Shown piece by piece: positions 31,461 to 38,738 of a stretch of 43,713 nt of DNA. The notes under the pieces were generated by a model. That model was given only the letters and a program-made list of their open reading frames with translations. It was not told the DNA's origin and made no database searches. A program made the position numbers and the translations under genes. Every line of letters starts with the position of its first letter. Position 1 is the stretch's first letter. This stretch comes from a virus (taxonomy: Duplodnaviria > Heunggongvirae > Uroviricota > Caudoviricetes). The stretch lies in IMG/VR virus record IMGVR_UViG_3300019755_000001; one strand, 5' to 3'.

Positions 31461-31832
31461 CTAACCTTGGAAGGCTAAACTTTGTGGATTAATCACACTC
31501 TTAAGTGCTTCATTCTCCATTTGTGTGTTCTCAATTATGTCTTTTAGTCTACCATACATAGCACCAATCTCCTGGTCCTTTGCTGATGCAACTTGTCCAG
31601 CTACTTGTTGATCTCTCATTGATTGCTTTGCTTGTTTACCTAACTCAGCATTACTCAACTTCTCACTGATTCCAGTACCATTATCTAGGTCGTACAGCTT
31701 ACTTCCGTTTATTGCACCAGTTTCTTTTTGTCTTTGGTCGAGTCTGTCGAAATACTCTTGTTCAGCAGCACCTTCTGTGTCTACTGCTCTCGTACTCTCA
31801 AATCCTTGTCCTATCATCCAATCATTAGCCAT
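31461..31832 (-). CDS. Hypothetical protein
   Basis: 123 aa, TAATG-coupled to portal. Confidence 0.65.
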   Translation of the reverse strand: MANDWMIGQGFESTRAVDTEGAAEQEYFDRLDQRQKETGAINGSKLYDLDNGTGISEKLSNAELGKQAKQSMRDQQVAGQVASAKDQEIGAMYGRLKDIIENTQMENEALKSVINPQSLAFQG

Positions 31833-33895
31833 TATTCTACCACTCCTATATTTTTATCACCTTGCTGAGCTTGATATCTCATCTGAATCAAGTTCACTCT
31901 AGCTTTCATTTGTTCTATCTCTTTCTTACCCGCAGCTTTTCTATCTTCTAACTCAAGCGCCTCTAAGTGACTAACCCCATTGTCATTTTTAAGGTAGGTA
32001 AGGGCTTCATTGTCAATCTTCTCGTCAAGTAGCTTAGCCTCTTTTAGTAACTTGTAGCGTTGAGCATCTAGTAATTTCGCTTTTGAATTTTTTTCAGCTT
32101 TATCTGCTATATCTTCTTCACCACTTGCTTTCATTTGCCTTATCTCAGCTTCTATTTTGTCATTTGCTAACTTAGCTGCTCTATATTCTTCTTGCTTCAT
32201 CATTTCGATCATTGGGTCTGGATTAGCCATCTGTTCTCTCAGTTGGTCTGCTCTGTCCCTCATTCTCTTAGCTTCTGTTGGCATTTTTGCTAACTCATAG
32301 TAATCTGCTGTCATCTCTGCTAGTAAGTCTGGCTCCATTGACGGTCCAAGTGTTTGTAGCATAAACGCAAGCTTTTCGGCTTTTAGTGCGTTATCTTCTA
32401 CTGTGCTTACCTCAATCTCTATGTCGATTGACGAGCCAACATCATCTGTACTTGGCTGTACATACTCTTCATTTGTTATTCTTGTTACTTCTTCAGGTGA
32501 CATGAACTCAGCGTTGTAACTAATCCATTTTCTAACTAATGGCTTAATCAAGTTCTCTGCGAGGTTTCTTACTGTGTTTAGTCTTCTTGTACTGATTGAA
32601 TCAAGTACTCCACCAGCACCTTTGGCACTACCACCAATTCCACCACTTAGTCCTTTTTCATTCATTCCCATAACACCAGTTATAGACTCAATGTCTCTAT
32701 CTGCTACATTCAGCATGTCGAACGCAGTGCCTGGCATTTGGTTGAACGAACCGTGTTGTATATCAGCAATTGATGTGTTTACTTCGAAGTGCTTACCAGC
32801 TTCCATACGTTTCTTGTTACGTGTGTCTAGTGCGCCTTTCTTAGTGATTATCTGCCCATTATTCGACTGAGCCATGTTGTTAATCATACCTCTGAACACA
32901 GCAGTTTTGATTTGTTGACTATCAGCAATTAACGCAGCATTTGCCTCACCGTACATTTCGAATGGTACACTATTAGCTGATGTGAATAGGAATGGTATTT
33001 GTTTGTCTGGGTATGGATTACCTTGTAGTCTGATTACTGTGTCATTTACCCAAGTACATACGATTGGTTCAGCAATCCCATCACCGTCTAAATCATAGTT
33101 ACCCCAGTACTCGTATACCAGCAACTCTTTTCTTGGGTCGTCCTCGAACTTGAATGATGACTCATCCTGTTCTTCATAATCCTCATCACTTTGTGGATCA
33201 GCGTCATCAGCGTGCTTTTTGATTCTATCTAAGTTCTTGTATCTACCATCTTGTTTAAGTCCACTCAGATTTGATTTATACCTTACCACGACGAACTGAC
33301 ATCTATCCATATCATCCTCACATGTAGGGTCAATAAACACATCTTCATTTCGTCTAACTACTGCTGTCGGGTTATTTACTTTTGTTACTTCTTGTGTAAC
33401 TGTTTCAATCCCGCCCAAGTACTCTTCGCCAGTTGTTTCATCTACCATCACGATAGCCTGCTCAACCTGGATCTTCTTACCTTTGTATTCCCAGCCACAT
33501 TGTACAGCAACCGTACCATCTCTGTCGTATATTTTTATTGCTTTCTGAAGGAAGTTGTATCTTGGGAATCGTCTAGTGAATTGTGTATTGATTACCAACT
33601 CAGTCTGTCTGGCAATTGCCTTATCTTCCCATGTTATTGGTTTACTCTTGATTATGTCCTGATCCATGAAGGGCGCCATCAAGCTTGCGTATAACCACTC
33701 CGACTGACGTCTTGAGTCCTTACTTACAATCTTTGACTTTCCTTCCTCTTCATTACCGTACAGGTCAGCATTGTACACACGTCTGTAGTCTTGTATCTTA
33801 TTCATCTGCGTGTCGTGCTGCGTCTTACTATTAGTGTAATCCTTCTTGAACTTGCTTAGTATGTCTTTTATTTTAGGTCTTTCCATCTGTACCAT
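31832..33895 (-). CDS. Portal protein (N4 gp59-like)
   Basis: SKIVSKDSRRQSEWLYASL, PITWED, FIDPTC, VYEYWGNYDLDGDGIAEPIV, NPYPD, YGEANA. Confidence 0.9.
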   Translation of the reverse strand: MVQMERPKIKDILSKFKKDYTNSKTQHDTQMNKIQDYRRVYNADLYGNEEEGKSKIVSKDSRRQSEWLYASLMAPFMDQDIIKSKPITWEDKAIARQTELVINTQFTRRFPRYNFLQKAIKIYDRDGTVAVQCGWEYKGKKIQVEQAIVMVDETTGEEYLGGIETVTQEVTKVNNPTAVVRRNEDVFIDPTCEDDMDRCQFVVVRYKSNLSGLKQDGRYKNLDRIKKHADDADPQSDEDYEEQDESSFKFEDDPRKELLVYEYWGNYDLDGDGIAEPIVCTWVNDTVIRLQGNPYPDKQIPFLFTSANSVPFEMYGEANAALIADSQQIKTAVFRGMINNMAQSNNGQIITKKGALDTRNKKRMEAGKHFEVNTSIADIQHGSFNQMPGTAFDMLNVADRDIESITGVMGMNEKGLSGGIGGSAKGAGGVLDSISTRRLNTVRNLAENLIKPLVRKWISYNAEFMSPEEVTRITNEEYVQPSTDDVGSSIDIEIEVSTVEDNALKAEKLAFMLQTLGPSMEPDLLAEMTADYYELAKMPTEAKRMRDRADQLREQMANPDPMIEMMKQEEYRAAKLANDKIEAEIRQMKASGEEDIADKAEKNSKAKLLDAQRYKLLKEAKLLDEKIDNEALTYLKNDNGVSHLEALELEDRKAAGKKEIEQMKARVNLIQMRYQAQQGDKNIGVVE

Positions 33896-33913
33896 CCATT
33901 TGTTATCTTCTCG

Positions 33914-33919
33914 ATTATA
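33914..33919 (-). promoter_or_regulatory. Candidate sigma70 -10 box (TATAAT) upstream of portal
   Basis: Perfect TATAAT in an AT-rich spacer; no good -35 (GCTACA). Confidence 0.4.
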
Positions 33920-33942
33920 GCTTACTATTTATTAATTGTAGC

Positions 33943-34293
33943 TTACCGTTTATCCCATCTTCGTGGTACACCGCTTTTAGTGTCGACATGTGTTCTGCCA
34001 ACATATCTACCAATCCCATACTTATTTGGGTACTTGTTGTGTAGGTACATAGCAACATCATCAGCATGCACATCTTTTACTCTGAAGTCGGCAGCTTGTC
34101 CTGTCTTGTGTACTGAGTTCTTAGCTCCACCAACCTTTGCATTATGTGCATCACATCTACATCCACTTGTTATTGTTACTGGCTTACCGAAGTGTTCTCT
34201 AACATCGTCTAGTACTTCTGCTAATTCGTAGTCAACCGTATCAAACCCGCAATTACACTTACATGCAAACTCTAATCTTTTAAAATATTTCAT
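33943..34293 (-). CDS. Peptidase M15A family endolysin (Zn peptidoglycan peptidase)
   Basis: EFACKCNCG, ITSGCRC, HNAKVGGAKNSVH, AADF, HVDT (H...D...H zinc ligands). Confidence 0.88.
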   Translation of the reverse strand: MKYFKRLEFACKCNCGFDTVDYELAEVLDDVREHFGKPVTITSGCRCDAHNAKVGGAKNSVHKTGQAADFRVKDVHADDVAMYLHNKYPNKYGIGRYVGRTHVDTKSGVPRRWDKR

Positions 34294-34295
34294 TC

Positions 34296-34685
34296 TTATC
34301 CTTTGTGTTTAGCTAACAGAACTTCATTGAGTTTTTCTGTTAGTATGTTTACTTCATTTTGAAGTCTTTTTGCTGCATCCGATTGTTCAACTCGCTCATT
34401 GTAGTACTTTTTCTTCTCCGGTTCACTGAAGCTTTTCACTGCATCCAAACCAAAGTTTAGTGCTAATGTTATTACGAATACAGCAATTGATACGTAAATT
34501 GTCTGCTTTGTCTTAATGTCACTGAACGCAACAGCTTGGTCGTTCATTGCTGCAACTATCTTACTATTGAAGTCAGCATTTTCTTCTCGTATCTTCTCAA
34601 TTAAGGCATCAGCATTATCTTGTCTGTTATGTACATCATCAATTCGTAAGTTTATTTGGCTTACAACCATTTCATCCATTCCCAT
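34296..34685 (-). CDS. Single-pass membrane protein, holin/antiholin-like
   Basis: Coiled coil, TM segment IYVSIAVFVITLALNFGL, coiled-coil tail; adjacent to endolysin. Confidence 0.5.
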   Translation of the reverse strand: MGMDEMVVSQINLRIDDVHNRQDNADALIEKIREENADFNSKIVAAMNDQAVAFSDIKTKQTIYVSIAVFVITLALNFGLDAVKSFSEPEKKKYYNERVEQSDAAKRLQNEVNILTEKLNEVLLAKHKG

Positions 34686-34691
34686 ACGTAT

Positions 34692-35390
34692 CTAATCCTT
34701 GAACTCGTATTTATTTGCTATCTTTTTCAAGAATTCTCTACCTTCTTTACCAAAACAAGCATTTGATGCATCTATTGCATCCATTAACTCATCATGCATC
34801 TCTGTTATGTCTCTACCAACACCACATATTGCATATAATGTACCTTCTAAGTTGTACACAGGGCTTTTGTGTACTTCCAACTTCATTTGTTTACCATTTA
34901 TATTACCTAACTCCAGGAACCTTCTGGCTTTCTCTGTGTCTCTTACTATTACGTCTGAGTTAGCACACTTCTCACCGAATGTATGGTTTTCATTACCAAC
35001 CTTTTCTTTGAATAGTTTAGCAATCTCTGTATCTGTCTTACCTTGTAACTGTTCCCATGACATATCATAACAGAAATTCTTCATGAATATGTTGTTTGCC
35101 ATGATATAACGACCTTCAACGTCTTTGGCCCACACCATGTCTGGTAAATGGTTGATAACCTGCATAAACATATTATCAGATTCTTGGTGTTGTTGCTTTA
35201 ACTCCCGTAGTTCTGCTTGGTACTTTGATAGCATGATGTCCTTACAAGCAACGCAGTCAGACAGTGTCTTTAACCCGTCTTCTGCTTTACTCATTGATTT
35301 GCCTAATCCAAGTACATCCATGAAGTCTAGTACTGCACTGATCCATTTGTTTACTACTTTCATACTTGGTGTACGACCTTTGGAACACAC
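34692..35390 (-). CDS. Stand-alone PAS (PAS_4-like) domain protein
   Basis: VINHLPDMVWAKDVEGRYIMAN...LQGKTDTEI...LEVHKSPVYNLEGTLYAICGVGRDITE; start uncertain (GTG 35390 or ATG 35363). Confidence 0.88.
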   Translation of the reverse strand: MCSKGRTPSMKVVNKWISAVLDFMDVLGLGKSMSKAEDGLKTLSDCVACKDIMLSKYQAELRELKQQHQESDNMFMQVINHLPDMVWAKDVEGRYIMANNIFMKNFCYDMSWEQLQGKTDTEIAKLFKEKVGNENHTFGEKCANSDVIVRDTEKARRFLELGNINGKQMKLEVHKSPVYNLEGTLYAICGVGRDITEMHDELMDAIDASNACFGKEGREFLKKIANKYEFKD

Positions 35391-35418
35391 GTCACGACTA
35401 TGTAATTATTTATCATAA

Positions 35419-35913
35419 CTACTTACCTTTAATCAGGATATCTTTGTCCTGACTACCTTTACTTGACCCGTAGAAGAAGTTGATTATCGTTGCTACGATT
35501 GTTCCTAGTAGAAACCCAAGTATTGTATCAGCGAATCTCTCATTGCCTTCTGGTATCGTGATGAACGTAATACCGAATATGAACACAATTGCAGCTATAC
35601 TCCACAACGAAGCGAAGTAGTACACAAACCTCTTACTGAACACATCATCTTGTGCCAGCGCCTCTGCTTGCATTGCTCGGGCATTAGCTGTATTCTCAGC
35701 ATGATACTTCAGTAACTCACTCTCATGTTCTCTTTGGAACTTCTTTAGCTCCGCAATTTCTTCTTTACTTACTGACCCTTTTGTCAGATCAATACCAGTC
35801 TTCTCACTTACTAGTTCAATTGCTTTGTCAGCTCCACCTTCTATGGCATTGCTAAGCAAATCAAGTCCTTTACCAGCTAACATACTAACTATAGGCGCTA
35901 ATATTGGTAACAT
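35419..35913 (-). CDS. Putative holin
   Basis: N-terminal amphipathic LAPIVSMLAGKGL, coil, two TM segments ending ILGFLLGTIVATIINFFYGSSKGS, a common phage holin ending. Confidence 0.65.
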   Translation of the reverse strand: MLPILAPIVSMLAGKGLDLLSNAIEGGADKAIELVSEKTGIDLTKGSVSKEEIAELKKFQREHESELLKYHAENTANARAMQAEALAQDDVFSKRFVYYFASLWSIAAIVFIFGITFITIPEGNERFADTILGFLLGTIVATIINFFYGSSKGSQDKDILIKGK

Positions 35914-35934
35914 ATCTTATCCTTTCATGAGTGG

Positions 35935-36570
35935 CTAGAACCACCCAAACTCTAATCTTCCATCTTTTGGTCGATTACCAAACCCAGTTCCACCTAGGAA
36001 ACTCACATCTATCCAGAACCATTCACTTCTTGGTTTATCCGTCTCAAACTGCACATACTTGAAGTTGTACGCAGTATTTCTTAATGTCCACCAGAAAGCA
36101 GGTCTTACACTAAAGCACGGCTCTAGTTCATCCCCAAGGTCAAACGAATTACCATCGTCGCTGGTAACAGGTATTTCATCTACCCAACTATACCCTTTTA
36201 TATCTTTGTACTCTCTGAAAAACTTCTTTGAGCAGTATGTATCATTTGTCGAGTCATCATCTAACCAACCCCACACAACCCAATACCAAAACAAGTATTG
36301 TGTCTTACTAACTTTTCTATAGGCTATGAAACCGTTTCTTGTAGTATGCCAAGGATACCCCGTCAATACCCAACCTTTTCTATCGTCGTCCCACTTAGGG
36401 CTACGTGATAGTAGTCTAGCTAAGTATATATCATTCTGTAGCACATAGTTATACACAACACTTCTAGCAGGCCCTCTAAGCCAAACGACAAACCAGTACC
36501 ATATCATGCCTACTACTTTTCTTATCAACGTCCATATCATTATACCTATGAACTCTATGTATTTATACAT
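35935..36570 (-). CDS. Trp-rich phage membrane protein
   Basis: WGWLDDDS and WWTLRNTAYNF motifs; hydrophobic N-terminus. Confidence 0.6.
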   Translation of the reverse strand: MYKYIEFIGIMIWTLIRKVVGMIWYWFVVWLRGPARSVVYNYVLQNDIYLARLLSRSPKWDDDRKGWVLTGYPWHTTRNGFIAYRKVSKTQYLFWYWVVWGWLDDDSTNDTYCSKKFFREYKDIKGYSWVDEIPVTSDDGNSFDLGDELEPCFSVRPAFWWTLRNTAYNFKYVQFETDKPRSEWFWIDVSFLGGTGFGNRPKDGRLEFGWF

Positions 36571-36831
36571 TTATTCCCCTAAACTTTCTTTGCAGTGATT
36601 GTTTTCCATCTTCTTGAGAGCACAACAGACCACCTTATCAAACCAATTCGCCTTACCTTCTGTGATACGTCTACCTACATGTGAGCTAATTGTTTCGTCA
36701 TGTGAGCCGTTCCATAGCAGTACATTGAACATCTGATCAAGAACGAGTAGAAACCTAAAGCCTCTACTTCTTTTTTTAACATCGTTCTCAAACTTACAAA
36801 TTAGTAGTCTAACTTCTTCCGGTGTTCGCAT
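36571..36831 (-). CDS. Conserved phage hypothetical protein (DQ..N...DETISS family)
   Basis: LDQMFNVLLWNGSHDETISSHVG...HCKES, a motif typical near tail/lysis genes. Confidence 0.65.
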   Translation of the reverse strand: MRTPEEVRLLICKFENDVKKRSRGFRFLLVLDQMFNVLLWNGSHDETISSHVGRRITEGKANWFDKVVCCALKKMENNHCKESLGE

Positions 36832-36832
36832 G

Positions 36833-37363
36833 CTACTGAGCTTTGTACTTGTCTAGCCATATTGGATCAAGTCCAACGATAGCTTCTACTTCTTCTACGC
36901 TTGCGCAGAACCACAACTTGCTCATAAGAACTCCAGCAGCTCTCATAGCTTTACCTAACTCAGTTTGTGTAACAACAGCCATGCTATTGTCATACAACCT
37001 CCAGTTAATCTCTTCGTCACCAACTAGTGTGGTGATAGCCTTCTGCATTCTAGTAGTAGCAGTCTCATCACCGTCATAACCTAGCCCATCAACTTCTACT
37101 CTCATAATAGCAATAGCCTTTTCGATAGCGGCTTTAGCCTCAGCTTTGTACTTAGCCAGTGAAGCCGAAGCAGAGGCCTCGTTGTCAACTACATACTTGC
37201 CATCAACAATCTCATCAAGATAGAACTCTTCGTATCTACCTTCACCTAATTTTGTATACTTATCGCCAGCAAGCAACCATACAGACTCGTTTACTTTTGT
37301 ACTATCTTTGAAGTTGTAGAACTCATGCCTACCATCTTCATGTACTCTCACTCTCAATACCAT
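36833..37363 (-). CDS. DUF4376-like tail-fibre assembly/accessory protein
   Basis: VDGLGYDGDETATTRM...INWRLYDNS...VTQTEL. Confidence 0.7.
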   Translation of the reverse strand: MVLRVRVHEDGRHEFYNFKDSTKVNESVWLLAGDKYTKLGEGRYEEFYLDEIVDGKYVVDNEASASASLAKYKAEAKAAIEKAIAIMRVEVDGLGYDGDETATTRMQKAITTLVGDEEINWRLYDNSMAVVTQTELGKAMRAAGVLMSKLWFCASVEEVEAIVGLDPIWLDKYKAQ

Positions 37364-37364
37364 A

Positions 37365-38738
37365 CTACACTCCTGAACTTATTTTCAATATTCCAGTATC
37401 ATTCCATACTGTACCTATGATCAAAGGATCTACGGTTTCTAATCCCTTCAGTACTATAGTGCCAGAACTCAGGCCGTTTAGGTTTACTTCGTTTAGCACC
37501 AAACTAGGAACTATCTCACCTTTATCAACCGCTACCAAGTCTCCATTAACCACCTCAAACTTAGCCAGAGTACCATCAGGATTCTCTAGGTATGATTGTT
37601 GAGGCAGTGCAGCACCTAGTGTAGGTTGAGTTTTATACACAGATATATTATCGACATAATCATAAGTAGTAGCAGCAGTAGCCATAGCAAAAACCACACT
37701 GGATGTTCCTGTAACACTAGCAGTGAAGTTAAATGTGTAAGTACCAGTTACTGATATGTTACCTAATGTAGCACCCTCTACAAGTACTCTCATATAACCC
37801 CTTGTACCTACTATGTAGCTAAGTGTAACTGAGTACTCTTCTCCTGCAATTGTACTAATAGCAGTACTTACACCATTATTTGATGCATCACTTGCAAGTG
37901 ATGTAATCTTCATCCTACCAGAATCAAAACTAGCTATACAATCAGTACCATTAATCCAACCGTCTACATTACTGTCAAAAGTACCATTGCTAATTAACTC
38001 ACCACCACTAGTACTATACCAATTGCCATCAACTAACACCTCTCGGTTATCGTCAACAAACTCTTTAGTATACATACCGAAACTTGGTTTATTATCTACT
38101 CTTACATACGTAGAAGGAGCACCATTTACCGACTTTATGTATTTAAAACCATCAGAACCAAACCCGTTCGATGGAGTTATATTCGTAGTTCCTGTCAATA
38201 TTTCATTAGTTTGGGTAAAACCTGCAGTAGTATCAAATGAACCATACATAACTACAACATCTGTAACAGAAAAGCTAGTGGTGTTAATCACAGATAGAAC
38301 AGTAGGAATAAACCTAGAAGATACAATTGGTGCAGAACCTGTAGGTATATTATTCGTAATTTCTTGCTGAACAAATGCCGTGCTTGCCACTTTAGTTGAA
38401 CTATCATCAGCCGCTTGTGTTGGAACCTCAACAGTGCCTGAGAATGTCTTATCCCCTGTAATTGTTTGTGTACCAGCTAATGTAACTACATCTGCTGCAT
38501 TTGCCTTTAAGTCAAGTTCAGCTTGTTGCGCTGTGCTTACTGGTTTATCTGCATCACTGGTGTTATCAATGTTATCAATCTCGTCTTTTCGTGCTATGGC
38601 AATGTCATCAGTACCGTCATTGTAATACATCCGTCCAGCATCTCCACCAGCAATATAATTGTCAATCGACAAGTCACCCAGTGTGTTTGGGTTTGTTATG
38701 ACACCATCAGTGTCAATTTTTGTAATCTTTGCTCCCAT
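37365..38738 (-). CDS. Tail fibre/receptor-binding protein with carbohydrate-binding-like domain
   Basis: NIDNTSDADKPVSTAQQAELDLKAN, VTLAGTQTITGDKTF, KVASTAFV fibre motifs; ELISNGTFDSNVDGW CBM4/9-like start. Confidence 0.8.
   Translation of the reverse strand: MGAKITKIDTDGVITNPNTLGDLSIDNYIAGGDAGRMYYNDGTDDIAIARKDEIDNIDNTSDADKPVSTAQQAELDLKANAADVVTLAGTQTITGDKTFSGTVEVPTQAADDSSTKVASTAFVQQEITNNIPTGSAPIVSSRFIPTVLSVINTTSFSVTDVVVMYGSFDTTAGFTQTNEILTGTTNITPSNGFGSDGFKYIKSVNGAPSTYVRVDNKPSFGMYTKEFVDDNREVLVDGNWYSTSGGELISNGTFDSNVDGWINGTDCIASFDSGRMKITSLASDASNNGVSTAISTIAGEEYSVTLSYIVGTRGYMRVLVEGATLGNISVTGTYTFNFTASVTGTSSVVFAMATAATTYDYVDNISVYKTQPTLGAALPQQSYLENPDGTLAKFEVVNGDLVAVDKGEIVPSLVLNEVNLNGLSSGTIVLKGLETVDPLIIGTVWNDTGILKISSGV

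Follow-up and report, generated by a model that had tools for sequence, protein, structure and literature searches.

The window analysed here, a stretch of 43,713 nucleotides, is part of a complete virus record of 107,713 bp with direct terminal repeats. The source virus is an uncultured marine N4-like phage of the lytic type, whose closest cultured relatives are the Alteromonas podophages AD45-P1 to P4 (100-104 kb; 48% portal identity). On the minus strand, the gene order reads tail fibre, three small genes, 35419-35913, 34692-35390, 34296-34685, 33943-34293 and portal. The middle four had been described in a first-pass annotation as a holin-like gene, a PAS gene, a gene for a protein with one transmembrane (TM) segment and an M15 endolysin gene, and all of them are present on this strand as described there. 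The features of the locus are as follows.

31832-33895, minus strand: portal protein of the SU10/N4 gp59 type, which marks the position of the cassette
33943-34293, minus strand: endolysin of the Peptidase_M15_3 family, 116 aa, assigned with Pfam and PHROGs
34296-34685, minus strand: 129-aa single-TM protein, the partner of the PAS protein, starting 6 nt after the PAS stop codon
34440-34502, minus strand: TM segment of the partner (residues ~62-82), from a hydropathy scan
34692-35390, minus strand: stand-alone PAS protein with a PAS_4 match; open reading frame from GTG at 35390, stop codon TAG at 34692-34694
34695-34793, minus strand: C-terminal helical extension of the PAS protein, from the structural model and alignments
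34794-35153, minus strand: PAS core, residues 80-199 of the 232-aa open reading frame, with the NHTFGExC..SD signature and Lys175
35154-35363, minus strand: N-terminal part of the PAS protein, from AlphaFold2 helices and alignments
35419-35913, minus strand: TeaA-type holin, 164 aa, with full-length homology to ICP1 TeaA

The four-gene lysis cassette is real, as follows from the TeaA-homologous holin, the M15 endolysin and a position between tail genes and portal that resembles that of N4 gp60-63. The product of 35419-35913 consists of a soluble N-terminal domain of ~95 residues followed by two predicted C-terminal TM helices, and it shares 36% identity with ICP1 ORF137 over 173 residues, i.e. 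over its full length (E 5.7e-32). ORF137 corresponds to teaA according to the table and primers of the ICP1 study, in which TeaA is an experimentally tested holin (PMC7182436). Collapse of the proton motive force and triggering by energy poisons were demonstrated for the ICP1 protein only (PMC7182436). The TeaA family is also found in phage VP882, where gp71 (L077, 36835-37947), which adjoins the endolysin gp70, is a TeaA homologue; the carrier of VqmA(Phage) thus also uses this holin family. The endolysin of the window is well supported by both Peptidase_M15_3 (E 8e-28, 97.1 bits versus a cut-off of 23.2) and the PHROGs endolysin family phrog_894 (E 2e-40). It has neither a signal nor a SAR segment and hence needs a large-hole holin. 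Scans for promoters and terminators inside the cassette gave no signal above chance. A lipobox scan of the cassette (window 33800-37400) and of the whole genome returned off-frame noise and no credible spanin candidate, and the same 33800-37400 region contains no gene for an N-terminally anchored periplasmic coiled-coil protein. Outer-membrane disruption by this phage is thus left without a recognisable spanin to account for it.

Directly beyond the holin, 35935-36570 on the minus strand encodes a 211-aa Trp-rich protein (phrog_9573) with 38% identity to ICP1 ORF91. Within this gene, at ~36238-36301, lies a stretch of 53-64 nt that is common to 82 ICP1-type records at 81-89% DNA identity. In several loci, a relative of the Trp-rich protein is encoded immediately before the PAS gene.

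The PAS gene is the only one of its kind in the genome according to a whole-genome scan. Its translation more likely starts at ATG 35363, giving a protein of 223 aa, than at GTG 35390 (232 aa), since both the existing gene call on the record and the homologues start there. PAS_4 (PF08448) matches residues 80-199 with E 9.4e-9 and 35.9 bits (curated cut-off 23.1; 37.1 bits in the whole-genome scan) and is covered from position 2 to 109 of its 110 positions. An AlphaFold2 model built from an 83-sequence alignment (mean pLDDT 89.4) displays a helix at 2-17, a long helix at 20-71, the PAS core at 76-185 and two C-terminal helices. In this model, the core strands 76-81, 86-89, 147-155, 158-170 and 176-185 form a five-stranded antiparallel sheet. 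Foldseek searches with the model retrieve solved PAS domains such as those of DosP, NifL, BvgS, LOV proteins and VqmA with similar scores (E ~1e-8, probability 1.00). No kinase, GGDEF, EAL, DNA-binding or other output domain was found with Pfam and related profiles in the protein itself or in ~225 homologues of similar length. Hence, the initial description as a stand-alone PAS protein without kinase or DNA-binding output is borne out by Pfam, AlphaFold2 and Foldseek alike.

The regions flanking the core carry family features of their own. The N-terminus begins with a short helix harboring a W..YNPFDI-like family motif (here LDFMDVLGL), and the ensuing helix of ~50 residues could, judging from the model, act as a coiled coil or dimer stalk; its amphipathic character is a by-eye judgement only. 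In the C-terminal extension, one Cys is nearly invariant and the K(Y)xF end is conserved. A CVAC (CxxC) motif that had been highlighted initially did not hold up as a family feature, as it is confined to the closest relatives in the alignments. A role of CxxC as redox site was rejected for this lack of conservation.

About 24 positions are invariant across 83 PAS sequences. The core of this signature is composed of NHTFGExC..SD at the start of the F-alpha helix, including His136 and Cys142, Lys175 on a beta strand and GxGRDxT (residue numbers refer to the 232-aa open reading frame). When all solved chains were searched with the family profile, only VqmA proteins were recovered, and these weakly (E 0.004-0.08). 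A direct hhalign comparison with VP882 VqmA (gp56) gave a probability of 86% and E 5.6e-6 across the whole PAS domain. In this alignment, the invariant Lys coincides with K101 of VqmA, a ligand contact that forms a hydrogen bond to the autoinducer DPO. Of the two residues that stack in the DPO pocket, F99 is matched by an invariant Val and F67, by count through the VP882 sequence, by an invariant Cys. Binding of DPO as in VqmA was therefore rejected as unlikely, given that two of the three key residues (F67 and F99) differ and only the Lys is kept. Thus, of the comparison with VqmA drawn at the outset, the PAS domain is confirmed by profile search and hhalign, while the helix-turn-helix (HTH) domain and the DPO pocket are both missing. 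The alignment suggests that the phage PAS proteins probably use a pocket position like that of VqmA, though not for DPO.

The same signature recurs in cellular proteins. PAS modules of bacterial histidine kinases and of PAS-GGDEF(-EAL) proteins carry it, and their identity to the phage PAS reaches 38-44% with the flanking helices included. Its presence in bacterial signaling proteins argues for a true ligand or cofactor site within the PAS core. Two metagenome proteins, P0121 and P0156, are membrane histidine kinases with the HATPase domain first and a PAS of this type at the very C-terminus; together with its C-terminal helices, this module is 44% identical to the phage members. A fusion of the PAS to a membrane segment was found neither among the longer proteins nor among representatives at 50% identity, and the long relatives are kinases and GGDEF/EAL proteins.

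The gene following the PAS gene encodes a protein that is predicted to form one continuous helix throughout, with an acidic N-terminal coiled coil, a KTK motif just before the TM segment and a C-terminal coiled coil of 47 residues. TM helices were called here and in the relatives by a simple hydropathy window. Shared across the family are an N-terminal coiled coil with a YRxxxLE-like pattern and, immediately ahead of the TM segment, a K/T-rich motif; two forms occur. Proteins of the first are tail-anchored and extend merely 2-12 residues past the TM segment, those of the second bear a tail of 43-59 residues with an EPEKxxYYExR motif. As the short partners have so few residues past the TM segment, their acidic coiled coil of 40-70 residues must be cytoplasmic, from which we infer that the N-terminal coiled coil of the partner resides in the same compartment as the PAS protein. 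No function is assigned to the partner in PHROGs. It lacks detectable homology to N4 gp63 (hhalign probability 4.8%; BLASTP E > 0.1), and neither the partner nor the PAS protein is similar to ICP1 ArrA or gp139. Based on these hhalign and BLASTP comparisons, the partner was rejected as a homologue of N4 gp63, ArrA or ICP1 gp139. A read-through fusion of the PAS protein and its partner was likewise discarded, because the two genes are in frame in the window only and overlap in another frame in relatives.

Stand-alone PAS proteins of this family, 164-253 aa in length and matching at E < 1e-50, form more than 225 clusters in metagenomes when grouped at 90% identity, several of them on contigs of ~100 kb. 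The stand-alone members lie on phage or phage-like contigs. Three matches came from prokaryote genome bins, of which two are located on contigs (100 kb and 8 kb) that resemble mis-binned phage and one is a distant multidomain protein. With the PAS protein as query, tblastn yielded no match in 50,697 phage records; no deposited phage genome carries this PAS. For the analysis of gene neighborhoods, 24 viral and 45 metagenome loci were collected, with gene calls from our own selection of open reading frames, and pairing was counted for those distinct PAS genes, 52 in number, whose downstream sequence spans 200 nt or more. In 51 of these 52, a one-TM open reading frame of 63-138 aa directly follows on the same strand, at -35 to +21 nt from the PAS stop codon. 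The two genes overlap in 29 of the 51 pairs, which implies coupled translation. The single PAS gene without a partner is an extra copy on a contig with two PAS genes. One record (IMGVR_UViG_3300001336_000015; L013 / L154) contains two PAS paralogues and, upstream of the full portal gene, a partial extra portal copy, which points to a duplication at this locus or else to a chimeric assembly.

The pair is accompanied by an endolysin and by a holin that is either TeaA-like or of PF11351. These genes almost invariably share the strand of the pair, and in most loci the holin is no more than a few genes away. The holin gene is located upstream in the clade of the window and downstream in most others. 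The endolysin slot next to the pair is filled by five unrelated families, namely M15_3, M15_4, GH108 with PG_binding_3, T4-type lysozyme and DUF5675; even the closest relative of the window, whose PAS is 88% identical, harbors a T4-type lysozyme in this slot. On a PAS tree of 47 sequences, the partner form switches ~2 times and the endolysin family at least 10 times, even among near-identical PAS genes. Taken together, the partner form is stable, whereas the endolysin is swapped and the gene order varies, so that the stable unit consists of the PAS protein and its partner, with the lysis cassette as its usual home. The linkage of the PAS gene to lysis genes, which had been noticed in this one phage, thus recurs in most of ~50 distinct loci, with five endolysin types and with portals of 29-67% identity. 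A lack of such linkage in other phages, which the first-pass annotation had named as grounds against its idea, is not what these loci show. Yet, where a holin had been envisaged as the binding partner, the constant companion is the one-TM protein encoded directly downstream (51 of 52) and not the TeaA-like holin. Five distinct loci of a single clade (that of L012, L062 and L064-L066) depart from this pattern: the pair lies outside any recognisable lysis cassette, on the strand opposite to its neighbors, which encode a DnaB-type helicase, a Nudix hydrolase and a Thg1-like protein.

Further small genes accompany the pair. In many loci, a conserved 41-codon open reading frame is found just after the partner or one small open reading frame further (L017:6802-6927, L020:6668-6793, L021:6937-7062, L022:6761-6886 and L053:1016-1141). 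Its product is a helical peptide ending in TY(K/R/Q)xxC, and the module of those lineages may include it as a third component. The gene immediately before the PAS gene often encodes a multi-TM protein of 82-230 aa or an 81-aa three-TM protein (L006, L009, L020, L038 and others). These proteins, which have no Pfam or PHROGs match, occupy the place that the TeaA-like holin has in the window.

The distribution of the pair was assessed among relatives defined by their portal protein. A search with the single portal protein returned only one distant locus, while retrieval with a portal profile gave 80 loci with 45-67% portal identity, 44 of which extend 3 kb or more past the portal on its upstream side. 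The PAS gene lies near the portal in eight of the 44, each time with the partner; none is present within 5 kb of the portal in the second closest relative (64% portal identity). TeaA-like holins exist without the PAS gene, and PAS pairs exist without a TeaA-like holin. The 5-6 kb upstream of the portal are hypervariable (loci L079-L157), and the scaffold-like and major capsid genes downstream are conserved. Hence, the PAS-partner pair is an accessory, optional module. Such a distribution is more in keeping with a regulator than with a core function in lysis, and it identifies the region upstream of the portal as a hot spot of gene exchange. Part of the association between PAS and lysis genes could accordingly stem from shared residence in an accessory-gene hot spot.

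A plausible role for the PAS gene and the one-TM gene, to which we assign an even chance, is that of a two-gene accessory lysis-control module, in which the PAS sensor acts on its membrane partner and thereby tunes holin triggering. The sequence data establish what the domains are, how the genes are ordered and coupled, that the pair is inherited together and that it is optional; contact between the two proteins, a ligand, and the direction and size of any effect on lysis are proposed on top of this. The PAS protein would be a soluble cytoplasmic sensor, probably a dimer held together by the long N-terminal helix, that may bind a small ligand or cofactor at the site common to the PAS domains of bacterial kinases and GGDEF proteins. 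The partner would sit in the inner membrane and expose its coiled coil to the cytoplasm, where the PAS protein could dock on it. Conceivably, the ligand state of the PAS domain then alters the ease with which the partner oligomerizes or depolarizes the membrane. Depolarization by the partner may in turn trigger the TeaA-type holin, and the soluble M15 endolysin would be released earlier or later as a result. In a broader form, which we hold tentatively and with a little less than even confidence, the pair would constitute a portable two-gene input to the lysis clock of several marine and aquatic N4-like lineages, with a small-molecule or redox sensor of the PAS type acting post-translationally on a tail-anchored holin-like protein.

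The pair might instead be a membrane-tethered accessory module with a non-lysis role that is merely housed in the same variable region as the lysis genes, an explanation we regard as unlikely but worth weighing. Superinfection exclusion, sensing of the host state for another purpose, and a membrane toxin with its regulator were considered as such roles. Two observations speak for this explanation: in the clade of L012, L062 and L064-L066, the pair is surrounded by genes of replication and nucleotide metabolism, and the portal-upstream region is plastic, with most relatives lacking the pair; it would also suit a partner without homology to any tested holin or antiholin. It is at odds with ~45 loci in which the pair lies between or beside holin and endolysin on the same strand and with tiny gaps, as this placement persists across portals that are 29-67% identical and despite repeated replacement of the endolysin. 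Moreover, the predicted layout of the partner is of the holin or pinholin type.

Other explanations concern the PAS domain itself. PAS domains commonly dimerize through their flanking helices, and many serve as protein-interaction modules. The PAS protein may hence be a non-sensing dimerization or scaffold domain that aids assembly of the partner and makes the pair a constitutive lysis accessory. That no cofactor motif can be assigned would be in line with this role, which we nevertheless deem improbable: ~24 invariant positions in 83 sequences cluster on the F-alpha helix, include the Lys aligned with K101 and are common to cellular sensors, a pattern that a conserved ligand site fits better than a scaffold. 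The kinship with bacterial PAS modules of histidine kinases and GGDEF/EAL proteins (38-44% identity, again with the flanking helices) could also indicate a decoy that heterodimerizes with host sensor kinases or c-di-GMP enzymes of the same PAS type and disturbs host signaling. We consider this quite improbable, since it leaves both the invariant coupling to the one-TM gene and the placement among late lysis genes unexplained, and since the bacterial relatives come from metagenomic organisms with no established link to the host of this phage.

The timing of lysis is the main life-history decision of a lytic phage. Known lysis controls comprise clocks that are intrinsic to the holin and a few antiholins, which answer to superinfection in T4 and ICP1 or, in N4, are yet to be defined. 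To our knowledge, no studied phage times the bursting of its host by a signal inside the cell. With a sensor wired into the cassette, the chemical or energetic state inside the cell would become an input of a new kind, and the engineering of ligand-controlled lysis would gain a handle. If the proposal is correct, an infected cell would lyse at a time governed by its metabolic or chemical state, and no other dedicated sensor inside the cell would so far be known to exert a direct action on the lysis machinery of a phage. Among the papers that were searched, none deals with PAS proteins in phage lysis cassettes. The new element is a PAS gene that is constantly coupled to a one-TM gene (51 of 52 loci) while the endolysin is swapped. 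Its absence from all deposited phage genomes explains why this family has escaped study.

Several known systems share individual traits with the module. VqmA(Phage) of VP882 and VqmA of Vibrio cholerae (PDB 7DWM, 6UGL, 6IDE) are the nearest solved relatives of the phage PAS. Like VqmA(Phage), the window protein is a phage-borne PAS sensor that would be tied to a lysis decision, a tie that for the window PAS is a proposal. VqmA, however, acts on transcription through a C-terminal HTH, whereas the window PAS ends ~30 residues past the PAS core, with no HTH in Pfam or in the model, and resides without a DNA-binding domain in the lysis cassette of a lytic-type phage. In terms of build, the short bacterial PAS/LOV proteins PpSB1-LOV and PF5-LOV, which are among the best fold matches in Foldseek, are equivalent, as they also consist of a PAS core with N- and C-terminal helices and no effector domain. 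In contrast to the window PAS, they bind flavin via a conserved motif, which the latter lacks, and have no linkage to a membrane partner or to genes for lysis.

Among lysis systems, ICP1 provides the homologue of the window holin, TeaA, and a precedent for a second membrane gene beside the holin that regulates timing (PMC7182436). This regulator, ArrA, differs in being a multi-TM protein dissimilar to both genes of the pair, and ICP1 has no PAS protein. In the lysis inhibition of T4, the holin T is controlled by the antiholins RI in the periplasm and RIII in the cytoplasm. The likeness to T4 is one of concept, in that a soluble cytoplasmic protein sets timing through the cytoplasmic portion of a lysis protein in the membrane; RIII is small and has no sensor fold, and T4 responds to superinfection, which is perceived in the periplasm.

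The best functional parallel is offered by N4 itself, whose lysis cassette gp63-gp60 lies between the tail genes gp64/65 and the portal gene gp59 (bioRxiv 10.1101/2025.11.12.688109). There, the tail-anchored pinholin gp63, with a regulatory stretch beside its TM segment, sets the onset of lysis, and the holin gp62 makes large holes (bioRxiv 10.1101/2025.11.12.688109). Both phages place two known or putative membrane lysis proteins between tail genes and portal. They differ in that N4 employs a SAR endolysin and spanins and has no PAS protein, in place of the soluble M15 endolysin and TeaA-type holin of the window, which is without a recognisable spanin. The tail anchor, the cytoplasmic coiled coil and the regulatory stretch before the TM segment of gp63 are mirrored in the predicted layout of the PAS partner family. 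By their predicted topology, the short partners fit the gp63 arrangement of a cytoplasmic N-terminal coiled coil and a single TM segment near the C-terminus, and the window protein has 47 further residues. By analogy, the partner would resemble gp63 in layout rather than by family membership.
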